64,000 bases of DNA from Pseudomonadota bacterium (GCA_039799905.1 JBDLRP010000045.1:32564-96563); one strand, 5' to 3'; counted from the first letter of the stretch, positions 9,632 to 46,902 are shown. The notes: a model not told the origin generated them from the letters alone. Program-made: numbers and translations.

Positions 9632-10999
9632 ATGAAGCGCATTCTGATAGCTGATGCAAGCAAAGCAAGTCTGGTCATGACGAGTGAAGTCTTCAAGGAT
9701 CATTTCCCGGGGGTTCAGGTTGTAGTTGCCCGCAACTCTGCAGATGCCATAGAGCTGGCGAAATCGGCAGGCGAATTGGATGCCTTCATTATCGACTATG
9801 ACCTACCCGACCGTGATGGAGCCTATACTGCGGCAAGGCTTAAAAAAATGTTCAGTCAGCCGATTTTGATTACCGCCTTTGACAGGCCCGACGTGCAGCA
9901 ATCGATTGACCGCGACTTGTCCGCATTCGATGATTGCCTAAGCTGGCTTAAGAAACCGGTTAAGCCCGAGCTGGTCGTCTCACTTGCGCAGCGTTTCATT
10001 GAAGGAAAGCATCGCTGTCAGCGTCGGTTGTCTTGCAGCATTCCAGCATTTCTTGAGGTTGAATTCAGTGCCGCGGAAGTTGCCGCGATGCTGTCCCGCA
10101 GCGCGTCTGTGAAGACTGTTCAGGTAGCCAAGGCGAAAGTTAAAGTTGCTGCCAAGCCGGCTGCCAAAGGTAAGGGTGCGGTGGCATTCAAAGCAGCCGG
10201 TAAACCTGCCAAAGCGGCTCCGCAGGCAAAAAACAAGACGACTGAAAAACCTGCAGCTAAGAACGCTGTCAAGACCGCCGCAAAAGTTACGGCCAAAACA
10301 ACGACGAAGCCTTTGGCTAAAACGACTGCGAAGCCCGCAGTCAGTAAAAGCTCAACTTCAGTTGCTGCGAAAGCAAATCCGGCCGCGCAAAAAACAAAGA
10401 CTCCGGCCAAAAAAGAGGCTGCCGTTCAGGTTCAGGCTGTGCGTAAAATCATCCCAGTGTTGATTGATGATGTGAGTCTGGGTGGGGCTAAGCTCAGAAT
10501 CAACAATCAGGACCTGATTGTTATGTCGTCGGCAAAGGGCAAGGATAGCGGGGCTATTCTCGATTTTCGGGAAGGACAGATTCTGCAGATTCATGTTCCG
10601 CCCTCCCATTTGGTTGAGGCCGGCTCTGAGGCGCTCGAAAAGTGGCAAAAGTCACAGGCAAAGGAACTTGCTGCGCAACTTGCAGCCCGCACTGCCGGCG
10701 AGGGAGCGAAAGCCAAGAAATCTTCGACGCTCAATCCGCTCGTTGGACGCGCCCGCAGCGGTCTGACAAGCACGCCTGACAACGGCGCGGTGGTGGAAAA
10801 TCCAATCAAGGTGCTCAAGGGCGAAATTCGCTGGGTTGCCTCGAGCGAGGTATTTACCTTCTGCGGCTTGCGTTCCGAGACGGTCAATGTTTCCAAGGGA
10901 CTGTTCGAGTCGATGATCGAAATCGAGTCGCGTAGCCGGAATCATTTAAGCCCAATCGTATCTCCCAGCTCGGCGCGCGGTAGCAAACTCAACGCGTGA
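9632..10999 (+). CDS. Response-regulator receiver plus PilZ-like domain interrupted by a Lys/Ala-rich insertion
   Basis: REC motifs (ILIAD, FIIDYDLP..DG, LITA, KKP); RCQRR at 10013-10027 and DVSLGG at 10469-10486; GEIRWV...CGLR strands. Confidence 0.8.
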   Translation: MKRILIADASKASLVMTSEVFKDHFPGVQVVVARNSADAIELAKSAGELDAFIIDYDLPDRDGAYTAARLKKMFSQPILITAFDRPDVQQSIDRDLSAFDDCLSWLKKPVKPELVVSLAQRFIEGKHRCQRRLSCSIPAFLEVEFSAAEVAAMLSRSASVKTVQVAKAKVKVAAKPAAKGKGAVAFKAAGKPAKAAPQAKNKTTEKPAAKNAVKTAAKVTAKTTTKPLAKTTAKPAVSKSSTSVAAKANPAAQKTKTPAKKEAAVQVQAVRKIIPVLIDDVSLGGAKLRINNQDLIVMSSAKGKDSGAILDFREGQILQIHVPPSHLVEAGSEALEKWQKSQAKELAAQLAARTAGEGAKAKKSSTLNPLVGRARSGLTSTPDNGAVVENPIKVLKGEIRWVASSEVFTFCGLRSETVNVSKGLFESMIEIESRSRNHLSPIVSPSSARGSKLNA

Positions 11000-11079: not shown

Positions 11080-11400
11080 ATGAAAAAGTCGACCGTCTCG
11101 ACATCTCAGCTTATCTCAACTGTTGCAGCCAACCATACTGAACTCCCCAAGAAGGTTACCAAGGAAGTTCTGCAAGAGTTCCTCTCTTTGATTGAGCAGG
11201 AAGTTGTTGGCAACCACGCAAAAGTTCGTATCGACAAAGTCGGTATCCTTCAGGTCAAGGAGCGCGCAGCTCGCATGGGCCGCAATCCTCAGACGGGCGA
11301 AGAAATTCGCATTCCAGCATCCAAGAAAGTTACATTCCGCGCTGCTAAGTCCCTCAAGGATGCAGTCGGCGTGAAGCGTGCGGCTAAAAAGAAGAAGTAA
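11080..11400 (+). CDS. hup: HU-family DNA-binding protein
   Basis: RAARMGRNPQTGEEIRIPASKKVTFRAAKSLKD signature; AAGGAG SD. Confidence 0.95.
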   Translation: MKKSTVSTSQLISTVAANHTELPKKVTKEVLQEFLSLIEQEVVGNHAKVRIDKVGILQVKERAARMGRNPQTGEEIRIPASKKVTFRAAKSLKDAVGVKRAAKKKK

Positions 11401-12999: not shown

Positions 13000-13168
13000 A
13001 AGTTTTCCAAACAGAAGTTCTGCATTGAGTTACGAAAACATGATAACGAATGAACGTTTCTGCACGCGAGTCGACGCGTTGACGGAATTAAAAATTGAAA
13101 AGATGTGTTCGGTGTCTTTACTTATGAAACGGACGAAGTTACATTTTCAGAAAATGGAGGTCACAAAT

Positions 13169-14035
13169 ATGGTTACGAAGAAGGGTGCGAAAAAGTCTGC
13201 TGCTAAGAAACCTGCTGCCAAGAAGGCTGCTCCTAAGAAAGCTGCCAAGAAGGCAGTTGCCAAGAAGAAGCCAGCTGCAAAGAAGAAGCCTGCCGCTAAG
13301 AAAACGGTAGCCAAGAAAACTGCAGTGAAGAAAACTGCAGCCAAGAAGACTGCCGCTAAGAAGGCAGCTCCGAAAAAGGCTGCAGCAAAGAAAACTGCGG
13401 TGAAGAAAACTGCAACCAAGAAGACTGCCGCTAAGAAGGCAGCTCCGAAGAAGGCTGCAGCAAAGAAGACTGTTCGCAAGGCTGGCGCTCGTCGCGCTAA
13501 GGCAGCTCCTGCTGCAACGCCTGCAGCGAGCGAAGGCGGAGAGCCTTCCGAGCCCGACGGCGAATCCGGTTTACTGTCCTCTCCCTATCCAGCACCAAGG
13601 ATTTCGGGGCTGGTTGGAGGAGAGGAGTTCGATGCGGTCTCAGTCAGAAGCAAGTGGGTTGTTCTTTATTTCTATCCGAAAGACATGACTCCCGGTTGTA
13701 CGATTGAGGCTCGCGACTTTCAGGCTCTCAAAGATGACTTCAAGCGGCAGGACGCCGTTGTCATCGGAGTGAGCAAGGACTCCTGCCAGAGTCACGGCAA
13801 GTTTGCGCAAAAGGAAGGACTTTCCTTCATGCTTCTCTCTGACGAGAAGAGTGATTTGTGTGAGCGCTACGGTGTCTGGAAGCAAAAGAGCATGTACGGT
13901 AAGACGTTCATGGGAATTGAGCGCAGTACATTTCTCTTGAGTCCAGCGGGTCAAGTGGTTGCACACTGGCCCAAAGTCAAGGTCGACGGGCACGCTGCTG
14001 CAGTTCTTGCAGCACTCCGGAAACTCAATCAATAG
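13169..14035 (+). CDS. bcp: Histone H1-like Lys/Ala-rich domain fused to BCP/PrxQ-family peroxiredoxin
   Basis: ATG 13169 after GGAGG; about 110 aa of KKxAA repeats, then VVLYFYPKDMTPGCTIEA...GVSKDS...KSMYGK.FMGIERSTF in one frame. Confidence 0.88.
   Translation: MVTKKGAKKSAAKKPAAKKAAPKKAAKKAVAKKKPAAKKKPAAKKTVAKKTAVKKTAAKKTAAKKAAPKKAAAKKTAVKKTATKKTAAKKAAPKKAAAKKTVRKAGARRAKAAPAATPAASEGGEPSEPDGESGLLSSPYPAPRISGLVGGEEFDAVSVRSKWVVLYFYPKDMTPGCTIEARDFQALKDDFKRQDAVVIGVSKDSCQSHGKFAQKEGLSFMLLSDEKSDLCERYGVWKQKSMYGKTFMGIERSTFLLSPAGQVVAHWPKVKVDGHAAAVLAALRKLNQ
13316..13465 (+). repeat. 75-bp tandem duplication (2 copies) in the histone-like domain
   Basis: 13316-13390 versus 13391-13465: three mismatches by manual comparison. 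Confidence 0.85.
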
Positions 14036-14061
14036 ATGAGTGACCGTGCCTGATTGAACTT

Positions 14062-14093
14062 AAAACCCCGCGGAGACGGTCCGCGGGGTTTTT
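14062..14093. terminator. Bidirectional intrinsic terminator
   Basis: AAAACCCCGCGGA-GACGG-TCCGCGGGGTTTT between convergent genes. Confidence 0.9.
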
Positions 14094-14168
14094 GTTTTTT
14101 GCTGAAGACAGAGCGTTTTAGCGAGTGTCTGATTTCCCTTTTGAACACTTCCCGCGCGAACGATGGTT

Positions 14169-16082
14169 TCAATTGCAGCTTGCATTCCAGCGGCTGCTGA
14201 GGAGTGTTTCCATCGTCGCGCCGAGCCTGATGACCTTCAAGCCTGACTTGGACACACTCATCATTTCACCGTCAATTTTGAAGAATCTTTGCACGTTCAT
14301 GAAGTTCGAGTCGTTGCGCCACATTCCCCAGCGATGGGATTGCTCACGGCAGCCGCTCGGCAAGAGGTCTGAGTGTGTCAGGAATTGTGGCTCAGAGAAG
14401 CCATCGTCCTGAATACGTGTGACAACAGCTCCTGTGAATCCGACTGAGAGTCCAGTCTGCGGTGGAAATGAAACAGGAGTTTTCTGGCAACCGGTGTTTC
14501 CAGAGCCGCACTCACCGTAAAGCGAGATGGGAAACGCCACTACACCTTCGCTTTGATCGAGATAAAACGCACGATGGTCGGCAGTTGCTGCGGACGAAGA
14601 GCCGCTGCTTCCGAAAATTTTAACATCCTTGCGCGACATCTCGAGCGGGTTGGCTGTGTCGAACAAAGACAACTGCAGACCTTCGATGCGACCAAAGTCA
14701 CCCTGTTCAACAGCGTCGAAGCCAAGTCCAACAAGCCGGTCGCTGCTTAGGGGATGCATATAGGTCGAAAAGCCGGGAATCTTGAGTTCGCCGATAATCT
14801 TTGGTTGCTGTGGTTGGCTAAAGTTAATTGCAAAGAGCGGATCGGTGTTTCTGAATGTAACGACATATGCAACGTCGCCGACAAAGCGAACCGATCGAAT
14901 GTTTTCGTTGGGTGCGAATTCCGGTGTCGCTCCAGTGATTGTGAGTCGTCCTTGTTGTTCACTAAGCACAGAGAAGTGATTTCTTGCCGAACCGTCCCGC
15001 AGGTTCCCACTCGAGGAAGCTGCTGCAAGTTCTCCTGAGGGAAGTTCTGCCAATGCCCAGACATCTTTGATCCTGCCTTTGACTTCTCCAACTGCCGACA
15101 AGGTCAAATCATCGGCATCCGCAAGAGAGACTTTGCGCAATAGTGTCTTTTCTTTTCCCCTGAAACTGTTCTCGAACAGATAGAGATTTTTATCTGTCAT
15201 GTAGAGCTTGTTGTAGCCCATGAAGCCGAGGGTTGTGGACTTATGAATGTCGTCGACAGAAGTCATCTCGACTTTTGTGAACCAGTCGCTATACCCGCCA
15301 TCGACGCTGGGGTACATGGTTTTGCACGAGAGCTGCGAAAGGTCCAACACAGAGCGGCCGCTCATGCTTTGTGTGTTTTGTTGGTAGGGGATGGCTTCAG
15401 CTGAAACCATGACAATCCGGTTCTTAAGGACACGCAACTCGTACGGTTGGTTTTTCAATGTCTTTTGCTGTCTCAAGGATGGCAGGGCTTGGTTTTGCAG
15501 TTCGAAGATGCTGAGTTGCTCTTGCCACAAGGCAATCAGCCTGTTCCCGGAAAGAAGCAGTGATGCGTTTTTGCTCGACTGTTGAATCGGCTTGTCGTTC
15601 AGATGAATCGTACCGATATGCTTTTTGCTTTTACGGTCGATGACGTTGATTTTATCGCCGTCGCTGACAAAGATTTGCCCCGCCGAAATTTTTACAAAGT
15701 CGCCTTCGTCAACACCTTCATGCCGGACGTTGGTCAGAACATCCGCCCCACTTCCGCTATTTTTCGCACTCTCTGGGGTACCGGCGGCACCGTCGCTCGT
15801 GGGCATTGCTCTTGGATGAAAGCGATCATTGTGGGAGGCCCATTTGAGGTGGGCTTCATTGATACATTGATTATATGAAACTGAGAGCTGTTGGGTGTTT
15901 TCGATCGCTTGGCATGAGTCGAATGGAAGGCCGGGTGAGCTCGTCCTTGAGGCGCTGAATTGTTGCTCACAATGCTCCAGAGCCTCGGAAAGTTCGCTTT
16001 GTCTGTCATTTGCCTTCCTGCCACATGCCCCGAGCGCGGGTGTCAGCAACAGAACCAGAGTTGTCATTTGATAGAGTTTCAC
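14169..16082 (-). CDS. Secreted beta-propeller domain lipoprotein (Beta_propel family)
   Basis: Lipobox LGAC; TNV...GVDEGDFVK, E.IRSVRFVGD.AYVVTFRNTDPLFAI, GELKIPGFSTYMHP; GTG start after GAGGAGG. Confidence 0.88.
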   Translation of the reverse strand: MKLYQMTTLVLLLTPALGACGRKANDRQSELSEALEHCEQQFSASRTSSPGLPFDSCQAIENTQQLSVSYNQCINEAHLKWASHNDRFHPRAMPTSDGAAGTPESAKNSGSGADVLTNVRHEGVDEGDFVKISAGQIFVSDGDKINVIDRKSKKHIGTIHLNDKPIQQSSKNASLLLSGNRLIALWQEQLSIFELQNQALPSLRQQKTLKNQPYELRVLKNRIVMVSAEAIPYQQNTQSMSGRSVLDLSQLSCKTMYPSVDGGYSDWFTKVEMTSVDDIHKSTTLGFMGYNKLYMTDKNLYLFENSFRGKEKTLLRKVSLADADDLTLSAVGEVKGRIKDVWALAELPSGELAAASSSGNLRDGSARNHFSVLSEQQGRLTITGATPEFAPNENIRSVRFVGDVAYVVTFRNTDPLFAINFSQPQQPKIIGELKIPGFSTYMHPLSSDRLVGLGFDAVEQGDFGRIEGLQLSLFDTANPLEMSRKDVKIFGSSGSSSAATADHRAFYLDQSEGVVAFPISLYGECGSGNTGCQKTPVSFPPQTGLSVGFTGAVVTRIQDDGFSEPQFLTHSDLLPSGCREQSHRWGMWRNDSNFMNVQRFFKIDGEMMSVSKSGLKVIRLGATMETLLSSRWNASCN

Positions 16083-45272: not shown

Positions 45273-45707
45273 ATGGCAGAAGTAAAGAAGGCCGCTCCAA
45301 AAAAGGTGGCCAAGGTAAAGAAGGCAGCCAAGAAACCAGCGGTGAAAAAAACCGTTAAGAAAAAGACTGCGGCGAAAAAACCTGCAGCTAAGAAAACGGC
45401 AGCCAAGAAAACTGCGGTAAAGAAAACTGCAGCAAAGAAGACAGTAAAGAAGGCTGCTAAGAAGACTGTTAAGAAGGCCGCCAAAAAGACAGTCAAGAAG
45501 ACCGCAGCTAAAAAGCCTGCAAAAAAGAAAACAGCTGCGAAGGCCAAGAAGGCTGTAAAAGCAAAAAAAGCAGCCGCTCCTAAAAAACGCGGCCGTCCTA
45601 GCAAGCTCGAGAAGCTTCGTCAGACCCACCGCCGCGGTCGTCCGCGCAAGGGCGCTGCGAAGGCTCATGCTTCCGAAGGCGGAATGGGCGAGTCCGGACA
45701 GCTCTAA
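45273..45707 (+). CDS. Histone H1-like Lys/Ala-rich protein with two AT-hook motifs
   Basis: AAGGAG SD; KKTAA/KKTV repeats; KKRGRPSK and RRGRPRK. Confidence 0.85.
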   Translation: MAEVKKAAPKKVAKVKKAAKKPAVKKTVKKKTAAKKPAAKKTAAKKTAVKKTAAKKTVKKAAKKTVKKAAKKTVKKTAAKKPAKKKTAAKAKKAVKAKKAAAPKKRGRPSKLEKLRQTHRRGRPRKGAAKAHASEGGMGESGQL

Positions 45708-45777: not shown

Positions 45778-46902
45778 ATGTTTATTGAAGATAGTCATCT
45801 CGCAGACCACCCGAATTGGGTGAATGTTCTTCTCGCTTGGTATGACCAACACAAGCGGGACTTTCCTTGGCGTCGCAAAATCGATGTTTATCATACGTGG
45901 ATCTGTGAGGTGATGAGCCAACAGACCACTATGGCCGTTGTTGTTCCGCGTTTTGAACGATTCGTCGCGACCCTGCCCGATGTAACATCGCTGGCTGACT
46001 GTTCGGAAGATCTTCTGCGCGAGCTGTGGTCTGGATTGGGCTACTATGCGCGCGCAAGAAATCTGCGCAATGGTGCACGCTATATCGTGACTGAGCGCGG
46101 TGGTCACTTTCCGGCCAATTATGAGCAATGGCTGACGGTGCCGGGAGTAGGGCCATACACTGCAAGCGTTATAGCAAGCATCTGCGCGCGCGAAGCGAAA
46201 GCCTGTGTCGATGGAAATGTCATTCGCGTGGTCGCACGCTTGGCCGGTTTTTCGTCCACTGAAGTCTGGTCGGAGCTTGGCAAGAAAAGCATTCAGGGCA
46301 TTGCTGACCGTTTTATCGATCACGACCGTCCGGGAGATTTCAATCAGGCGATGATGGAACTGGGTGCAACGCTGTGTCAGAAGCAGTCGCCGGGCTGTGG
46401 ACGCTGTCCGATCAAAACCGTCTGTCGCGCTTCTCAACTTGGAATAGTCGCCCAGTGCCCGCCCAACAAACCTCGAAAGCAAACGGAATTTGTCGAGCTC
46501 GATGCGCTGCGTGTGAGTTCTCCCGCCGCGGGTGGAAATGAACAGTATCTTCTCGTTGCAAGAAAACGTGGTTTTTTGAGCGAGACGGTCGGCTTCCCGC
46601 TTTTTCCCGAGACAGATCGCTCTTCGCTGCACACTTGGTTGAAAGAAAATGTGCACGTGAGATCTGTGCAAATCAGCAGCGAAGAACCATCTCATACCAT
46701 AACCAACCATCGTATTTCAGTGCGGGTTGTTGATGTCGAGTTGTTCGAAGGGGCAGACTTGTCGAGCGAATTTGTGCGACACTTTTCTCAGCGGTTTGCG
46801 GAGTCAGTCACCGACTGCCGCTGGGTGTCAAAATCCCTCACAAAAAAGACTGTGGCGTCTTCGCTGGATCGCAAGATTTGGGAAAATATTGCCCTCTTTT
46901 GA
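45778..46902 (+). CDS. mutY: A/G-specific adenine glycosylase
   Basis: RDFPWR, EVMSQQT, W.GLGYY.RARNL, PGVGPYTA, VDGNV.RV, NQAMMELGATLC..QSP.C..CP....C. Confidence 0.96.
   Translation: MFIEDSHLADHPNWVNVLLAWYDQHKRDFPWRRKIDVYHTWICEVMSQQTTMAVVVPRFERFVATLPDVTSLADCSEDLLRELWSGLGYYARARNLRNGARYIVTERGGHFPANYEQWLTVPGVGPYTASVIASICAREAKACVDGNVIRVVARLAGFSSTEVWSELGKKSIQGIADRFIDHDRPGDFNQAMMELGATLCQKQSPGCGRCPIKTVCRASQLGIVAQCPPNKPRKQTEFVELDALRVSSPAAGGNEQYLLVARKRGFLSETVGFPLFPETDRSSLHTWLKENVHVRSVQISSEEPSHTITNHRISVRVVDVELFEGADLSSEFVRHFSQRFAESVTDCRWVSKSLTKKTVASSLDRKIWENIALF

Follow-up and report, generated by a model that had tools for sequence, protein, structure and literature searches.

The open frame at 13169-14035 (+) of the window, i.e., the stretch of 64,000 nucleotides of an uncultured freshwater bacterium of the Pseudomonadota that was analysed here, is read, with a probability slightly better than even, as the gene of one protein, a predicted BCP/PrxQ peroxidase whose predicted disordered polycationic tail would tether it, without sequence specificity, to the nucleoid DNA. 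In the mechanism proposed from the sequence, the structural model and analogous proteins, Cys177 would reduce H2O2 and organic peroxides, the 47 positive charges of the tail would bind the phosphate backbone electrostatically, and the acidic Pro/Gly linker would leave the enzyme mobile. Peroxide may then be destroyed beside the chromosome before Fenton chemistry harms the DNA, with compaction being a side effect at most. The question addressed by this protein is whether antioxidant enzymes benefit from sitting on DNA; the binding of DNA by BCPs is known only in vitro, according to the part of the review available (PMC8945050), and the benefit of a location on DNA is testable here by tail-swap, as sister genera of freshwater bacteria differ naturally in whether their orthologue has a tail.

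The gene forms a single frame of 288 amino acids plus a stop, with zero internal stops on translation, and its product has 30.5 kDa and a calculated pI of 10.3. The Shine-Dalgarno sequence GGAGGT (13156-13161, +) lies 7 nt 5' of the ATG, and both this sequence and an identical start context are kept in all 11 genus genomes with an intact 5' end, the other two of the 13 being clipped by a contig edge. Three parts follow one another in the frame, that is, a Lys/Ala-rich Hc2/H1-like tail (aa 1-118; 13169-13522, +), with 44 Lys, 42 Ala, zero Asp/Glu, 20 KK pairs and a net charge of +47, an acidic linker rich in Pro, Gly and Glu (aa 119-136; 13523-13576, +), with a net charge of -5, and the BCP/PrxQ domain (aa 137-288; 13577-14032, +). 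A hairpin of 13 pairs followed by a T-run, resembling an intrinsic terminator, is found at 14062-14092 (+). The two internal GTGs sit within the tail and have no Shine-Dalgarno sequence, no ATG, GTG or TTG is present between Cp-99 and Cp-25 (counted from the peroxidatic Cys, Cp) in the source genome, and no conserved internal start with a Shine-Dalgarno sequence was found in the genus genomes. The coordinates and motifs that the earlier note had given for this gene are all correct, including the strong Shine-Dalgarno sequence and ATG, the lack of a convincing internal start, and the terminator.

A search for a sigma-70 promoter of the fused gene returned no match. The gene stands alone, with a divergent receiver/adenylate-cyclase gene on one side and either a convergent beta-propeller gene or sdhB on the other, and this context is uninformative as a guide to function. 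The beta-propeller gene (14169-16082, -), located between bcp and sdhB, is present in only three of the 13 genus loci (L001-L003), and sdhB directly follows bcp in the remaining 10.

The junction of the tail and the enzyme was checked in the contigs of four (X2, X5, X6, and X7) of the 22 matching sequencing runs, of which those matching best are freshwater and lagoon metagenomes. The 13500-13600 region is crossed by the DNA contigs X2 (13420-13793) and X5 (13420-13913), with zero differences and one substitution, respectively, and by the contigs X6 (13420-14070) and X7 (13420-14065), from the RNA libraries of one study, with zero differences each. Neither an indel nor a stop was found at the junction in these four contigs, which settles the concern of the earlier note that one or the other may have been miscalled there. 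The whole gene is not spanned by any single contig, because the assemblies break in repeats, and overlapping pieces of X2 tile 13000-14150 with zero differences. The RNA-library contigs end at 14065-14070, inside the terminator, where the DNA contig X2 continues, and these ends hint weakly at transcription, which contigs cannot prove. Among the RNA-library pieces listed, none covers the 5' part of the tail (13169-13344), a gap that speaks neither for nor against its transcription, given the breaks of contigs in repeats.

The same architecture, for which a search in related genomes had been suggested, was found in all 13 genomes of the genus, with the tail, linker, and enzyme in one frame (two of these genes being clipped at the 5' end by the contig edge) and a tail of 110-120 residues wherever the gene is whole. 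The close homologues include those of a 'Silvanigrellaceae bacterium' (P0008, 83%) and of an 'uncultured Oligoflexia bacterium' (L085, 86%). The fusion of BCP and tail is real and conserved in the genus.

The enzyme domain is assigned to the BCP/PrxQ peroxiredoxins, which agrees with the identity first proposed. It scores 104.8 bits against Pfam AhpC-TSA (PF00578; cut-off 26), and its top nine PDB sequence matches include eight named BCP (E 1e-44 to 3e-36), the best being the Xanthomonas BCP (E 1e-44), with AhpC/Prx1 at 1e-10 or worse. The AlphaFold2 model, built on an alignment of 80 sequences, predicts a confident Prx fold over aa 141-288 (pLDDT 94-98), and Foldseek superposes it on Xanthomonas PrxQ with an rmsd of 1.5-1.6 A, in a thioredoxin fold. 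The PxxxTxxC active-site motif (13676-13699, +), which comprises P170, T174, and the peroxidatic C177 (codon 13697-13699), and the catalytic Arg252 (13922-13924, +) are invariant in 80/80 aligned homologues, and the PKxxTPGCTxEA motif, as quoted in the available part of the review (PMC8945050), is present minus its final Cys. The equivalog cut-offs of PRK09437 (120 vs 140 bits) and NF053650 (140.4 vs 260), the two best among the 12 NCBIfam families matched, are missed, which bars an automatic equivalog name, not the assignment to the BCP/PrxQ subfamily.

The position Cp+5 is occupied by Arg, so the resolving Cys of the helix alpha2 type (CxxxxC) is missing, as had been noticed, and Ala213 aligns with the resolving Cys of helix alpha3 in Xanthomonas (Cp+36), a type that Xylella has as well. 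Given the lack of a resolving Cys at both positions, the enzyme probably works as a 1-Cys BCP that thioredoxin or glutaredoxin recycles, and a 1-Cys BCP is reducible by Trx or GSH/Grx, according to the same review in the part available (PMC8945050). The two other cysteines are Cys206 (Cp+29; 13784-13786, +), at a non-canonical position as the first residue of helix alpha3 (206-216 in the model), and Cys231 (Cp+54; 13859-13861, +), which lies in helix alpha4 of the model and aligns with a non-resolving Cys of Xanthomonas PrxQ. Both are invariant in 23/23 close homologues and, given that most of the untailed family members have the pair, they are older than the tail. In a set of 255 domains, 42 have a Cys at Cp+29, of which 41 also have one at Cp+54 and none has one at Cp+5 or Cp+36. 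The rows are related to one another, and this pattern may reflect an unusual resolving Cys, a structural disulfide, or chance. Cys206 as an unusual resolving residue would be the candidate alternative to the 1-Cys type.

The tail scores 45.1 bits against Pfam HC2 (PF07382; cut-off 40), a low-complexity match that is no proof of descent, and the fused protein misses the NCBIfam cut-offs of Hc2 (34.1 vs 135 bits) and of the Burkholderiales H1-like family (54.7 vs 80 bits). On these scores, the H1-like part is a fused domain, and the protein is neither Hc2 nor H1 proper. AlphaFold2 predicts no secondary structure over aa 1-134, with a pLDDT of 48-56 in the tail block, and the winged-helix globular domain of the eukaryotic linker histone H1 is absent from this part of the model and from the Pfam matches. 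A search of the ESM Atlas returned 30 matches, all of them Prx clusters and none on the tail. In comparison with the 12 other genus genomes, the enzyme has a pN/pS of 0.09-0.27, the linker one of 0-0.37, and the tail one of 0.03-0.31, the last with a pN that is lowered because repeats were aligned by protein similarity. The closest pair of the genus aligns across all 112 tail codons, with a pS of 0.12 and a pN of 0.004. By these estimates, the tail and the linker are under purifying selection.

The tail is absent from the same-clade BCP in the other genera of the family (0/11 loci examined) and in the sister family (0/1). A midpoint-rooted tree of 49 rows places the tailed genus on a single branch (SH-aLRT 92), nested among untailed relatives in a clade with an SH-aLRT of 99, and, given this nesting, the simplest reading is that the tail was gained within the genus. 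Two possible sources of the tail were considered and found no support. No Lys/Ala-rich frame that could represent a split H1-like gene, as a precursor beside bcp, is found within ~1.5 kb in the sister-genus loci (L014-L023). A copy of the stand-alone H1-like gene at 45273-45707, an idea raised by its similar acidic end, is not supported, because this end varies among 30 orthologue loci and the BCP linker does not.

Tails of this type are not restricted to the genus. In the class survey, 111 of the 131 genomes have a BCP match, and the 70 BCP loci examined from this set, mostly chosen for long frames, plus outgroups, divide into 35 with at least 40 tail residues, two with 20-39, and 33 with none. 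Tails of at least 40 residues are found in 13/13 loci of the genus, 15/20 of family f6, and 7/9 of family f9, the latter two having BCPs of the CxxxxC type. Forcing the tailed BCPs of the genus, f6, and f9 into a single clade lowers the log-likelihood by 90 and is rejected by the AU test (p-AU 2.2e-5, for groups fixed after the first tree had been seen). In these trees, the two other Oligoflexia families gained the tailed BCP separately.

Among the best 120 of 497 homologues, the 98 outside the clade comprise 53 with N-terminal tails, 29 with C-terminal tails, six with short tails, and 10 with none, and the best 150 clusters at 50% identity comprise 52, eight, nine, and 74, respectively, plus seven that were unparsed, both sets being enriched for tails by the choice of the query. 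Counted over both termini, tails are present in at least 60 of the clusters at 50% identity. A FastTree phylogeny of the 255 domains (267 less 12 identical) contains 19 changes between the tailed and untailed states, on many weak branches and in a query-biased set. In a named panel of at least 80 genome loci picked by conserved patterns, of which 78 were parsed, there was one long tail, from a close relative, two short tails, and 75 BCPs with none. The tails on other BCPs have from about 25 to >170 residues, at either terminus, and accompany differing types of resolving Cys. A search of five genomes with Pfam HC2 was too insensitive to serve as an inventory, having missed known tails in G031, G037, and G040. 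By these surveys, tails on BCP are scattered and have turned up repeatedly without being the norm, and the architecture is less unique than first assumed, being found in many lineages of bacteria and having precedents in eukaryotes.

Other unusual BCPs were found during these surveys. At locus L150 (G043 C256), the BCP ends an open frame of 353 aa that contains an X and whose upstream part presumably corresponds to an EVE domain, judging by its motif. The BCPs of loci L134 and L135 (G067 and G068) have a long Asp/Glu-rich C-terminal extension, which L134 combines with a basic N-terminal tail. In one representative of the N-tailed clusters at 50% identity, Ser replaces the peroxidatic Cys, which suggests a dead enzyme.

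The question of what these tails bind is informed by their other carriers. A search with the tail only, in which 120 of 200 matches were considered (proteins of 158-504 aa), recovered 19 BCPs of the clade and 101 non-BCP carriers. Among the matches listed, 48 of these 101 have nucleic-acid or RNA-polymerase/ribosome partners (CarD 21, TrcR 7, SWIB 5, NYN/S1 4, DksA 3, MetJ 3, RsfS 3, HU 1, and a topoisomerase repeat 1), 42 are enzymes or other proteins with no evident DNA role (hydrolases 14, alpha/beta hydrolases among them, IGPS 8, cysteine synthase 6, adenylate kinase 5, glycogen synthase 4, and other 5), and the remaining 11 lack a partner domain. The source genome has 10 ORFs with Lys/Ala tracts, among which BCP is the sole recognisable enzyme. 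In a control restricted to two oligomeric enzymes in the 131 genomes, the frames left no room for such a tail, the longest having 272 aa for the AhpC type (among 150 of 195 matches) and 237 aa for NDK (the longest listed; 122 matches), and a Lys/Ala tract was present in 0/20 of the longer AhpC-type or NDK frames examined. BCP has gained a tail more than once and no such gain was seen for AhpC or NDK, a hint that its place in the cell is important for BCP, and the tail would appear to be partly specific to this enzyme. On sequence grounds, it is nevertheless a promiscuous appendage that alone does not identify DNA as the ligand, given that like tails sit on unrelated metabolic enzymes and thus say little on this point, and an H1-like tail may possibly be a general localisation tag.

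The most probable alternative, unlikely and yet with an appreciable share of the probability, is that the tail anchors the protein to polyanions in general and mainly binds something other than DNA. The candidate ligands would be RNA or ribosomes, polyphosphate, storage granules, and anionic membrane, and the peroxidase may be placed near lipid peroxides or other targets. The metabolic enzymes and ribosome- or RNA-linked factors among the carriers favour this interpretation, together with the lack of any sequence-specific DNA motif in the tail, unlike the stand-alone H1-like protein encoded at 45273-45707, which has RGRP motifs. On the other hand, the tail exceeds the cut-off of HC2, a family defined by DNA-binding proteins, which supports the reading of DNA as the ligand, and the characterised analogues are bound to DNA or chromatin. 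The tethering of the peroxidase to the nucleoid is also supported by the separate acquisitions of tails on BCP, and it has against it that the sister genera manage without a tail and that a Dps-like protein and two AhpC-type matches already exist in the genome.

The source genome, which is 94% complete, provides the cellular setting of the fused protein. Its Dps-like gene (G000 C44; best NCBIfam match Dps, 98.8 bits on the matched part) also occurs in G001, for which reason the idea that the tailed BCP replaces Dps was rejected. Three HU-like ORFs and two stand-alone H1-like proteins, of 137 and 144 aa, are also encoded. KatG was not found in the source genome, and a monofunctional catalase over the cut-off was found in 0/13 genus genomes (G000-G012) vs 13/20 of the other family genomes, nine of these being full-length. 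Given the presence of the Dps, HU, and H1-like proteins and the catalase not found, the circumstantial reading is that thiol peroxidases are important and that a dedicated role in compaction would be unnecessary. The genus genomes also have only a weak bacterioferritin-like match, and most other genera have a strong one.

Several observations concern the other basic proteins of this genome. The stand-alone H1-like protein of 144 aa (45273-45707, +) ends in two RGRP motifs, presumably AT-hook-like, and has orthologues in 33/33 family genomes, whether the BCP is tailed or not, with up to five RGRP motifs. It is a candidate major nucleoid protein of the family, and its gene lies just upstream of that of an HhH-GPD DNA glycosylase (45778-46902). 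The second protein, of 137 aa, is encoded at 107922-108335 (-) of contig C29 of the source genome (G000). The gene at 9632-10999 (+), directly upstream of the HU gene at 11080-11400, encodes a protein of 455 aa whose N-terminal part is a weak receiver domain and whose interior has a Lys/Ala/Pro tract at about aa 158-223.

In this setting, it is considered unlikely that the fused protein is a bifunctional nucleoid-associated protein in which the compaction of DNA by the tail is itself a selected function and the enzyme shields the DNA, as the earlier note had claimed in full. The tail, with its 118 aa and +47 charge, approaches the stand-alone H1-like proteins in size, and the H1-like domain of DdbA condenses DNA in the available text (PMC3643593). 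The genome has stand-alone H1-like proteins, HU, and Dps, and a range of BCP tails from about 25 to >170 residues fits a tether better than a condenser. The nucleoid-tethered peroxidase stands as the best reading of the sequence, and the compaction half of the claim is weakly supported.

The linker that joins the two parts has features of its own. Its amino-acid conservation (0.96 for the region) exceeds that of the BCP domain (0.86) in 12 genomes, and the linker DNA at 13529-13579 (+) has unusually low silent-site variation, which was spotted by eye before testing and may be a possible overlapping nucleotide-level signal. Synonymous diversity falls to 0.44 of the expectation from the BCP domain in the lowest window of 16 codons, with at least 0.76 in the BCP windows, and 6/2000 column shuffles were equally low (12 genomes, with the near-identical L002 left out). 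A linker string of 29 nt is exact in 11/13 genus loci and unique in the source genome, and a degenerate pattern scan of metagenome contigs recovered only three loci, all with the same codons at most of the conserved positions. A conserved RNA structure was rejected, as RNAalifold predicts 18 pairs with changes on both sides in two only (covariation term +0.41), and Rfam returned no family at the gathering score, with five weak matches that all overlap the terminator and none in the linker. Neither a covarying structure nor an Rfam family nor a start codon accounts for the silent-site conservation of the linker.

This conservation is the basis for a second kind of alternative, considered quite improbable, in which the tail and the enzyme would come apart as two products or as a regulated mixture, with the linker serving as a cleavage site or as a DNA/RNA pause, recoding, or internal-initiation signal. 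The excess of amino-acid and silent-site conservation over the enzyme is consistent with it, and so is the location of the linker at the position where the untailed orthologues begin. No conserved ATG, GTG, or TTG with a Shine-Dalgarno sequence is found there, and the little covariation and the lack of an Rfam match in the linker also argue against it.

Even less probable is the tail as a tolerated or weakly selected low-complexity appendage with no localising role, which may contribute to solubility or support a holdase. Such tails arise easily on many proteins, and they may simply be tolerated by BCP, which is small and probably monomeric. A holdase activity of a Deinococcus BCP is mentioned in the available part of the review (PMC8945050). 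The maintenance of the tail in 13/13 genus genomes, at 110-120 residues where whole and with a pN/pS of 0.03-0.31, as well as its gain more than once on BCP, argues against this reading. An assembly or sequencing artefact that fused two genes has a practically negligible probability, being refuted, despite the breaks of short-read contigs within the tail repeats, by the junction contigs of four other runs with no stop or indel and by the fusion throughout the genus, which is common to 12 other genomes and 22 database proteins.

A broader proposal goes beyond the single gene and is held only tentatively, being doubtful. A peroxidase tethered to the nucleoid may have arisen in bacteria many times, and specifically on BCP/PrxQ, through H1-like tails at either end, which would form a widespread and undescribed class of chromosome-bound antioxidants, convergent with PfnPrx and Dot5. 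In the genus, in which no heme catalase was found, the nucleotide-level signal of the linker may also set the balance of the tethered and free enzyme. No bacterial BCP with an H1-like tail was found described in the literature searched, which was largely that outside subscription journals, and the tailed BCP is apparently undescribed in bacteria.

The comparison with known systems begins with the enzyme itself. The PrxQ of Xanthomonas campestris (PDB 5iph, 5iiz, and 3gkm) and of Xylella (3ixr), the nearest BCP/PrxQ proteins of solved structure, share ~52% identity with the domain described here, and have in common the PxxxTxxC motif and the Arg. The fused protein differs from Xanthomonas PrxQ in that Ala213 replaces the resolving Cys of helix alpha3, with a Cys at Cp+29 instead, and from both in its 136 additional N-terminal residues of tail and linker. 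The binding and protection of DNA in vitro are known for some BCPs, the Coxiella burnetii BCP being cited as DNA-binding, and the physiological relevance is unestablished according to the available part of the review (PMC8945050).

The tail also has counterparts in bacteria. In DdbA of Streptomyces, H1-like repeats are fused to DksA and the H1-like N-domain binds and condenses DNA, and the PAKKA tail of the Ku of M. smegmatis modulates the binding of DNA, its removal having raised DNA affinity, in the available parts of the respective papers (PMC3643593, PMC3553676). DdbA, this Ku, and Hlp have pentapeptide xxxKK repeats on an unrelated domain, as here, according to the same portions of these papers (PMC3643593, PMC3553676). 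Their partners are transcription or repair proteins, whereas here the partner is a redox enzyme.

The pairing of the two modules has eukaryotic precedents, one of which is PfnPrx/MCP1 of Plasmodium falciparum, a protein that we take to belong to the PrxQ group. In the available part of the paper (PMC3064226), where neither 'PrxQ' nor 'BCP' is used, it is described as an active peroxidase in which the Prx domain is followed by an acidic middle and a Lys-rich C-terminus, the same three parts as in the fused BCP, and as associated with chromatin genome-wide, with the same tethering logic being proposed by its authors. According to the same part of the text (PMC3064226), neither the full-length protein nor the tail could be expressed, and a role of the tail itself in anchoring PfnPrx to chromatin was not demonstrated. 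PfnPrx differs in being eukaryotic, in its reverse order, with a C-terminal tail, and in its nucleosomal chromatin (PMC3064226), and its likeness to the fused BCP is one of architecture.

The other precedent, the nuclear thiol peroxidase Dot5 of Saccharomyces cerevisiae (PDB 2a4v), has a Prx domain homologous to that of the fused BCP (E 4e-9; TM 0.80 over the target). To our knowledge, bacteria of this group have no nucleosome acidic patch. In the available part of the paper on Dot5 (PMC13347269), a basic N-terminal motif mediates nucleosome binding, and the likeness is that a disordered basic N-terminal region provides the anchor to chromatin. The difference is that Dot5 engages the acidic patch through an HMGN-like motif that is short and Arg-rich (PMC13347269, same part), vs a long Lys/Ala polymer here. 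Both modules of the fused protein are known and their pairing has a eukaryotic precedent, with no new chemistry or system involved. The fused BCP shares with PfnPrx and Dot5 a Prx domain and a basic low-complexity extension and, by analogy, we infer that it may work like a chromatin-tethered Prx.
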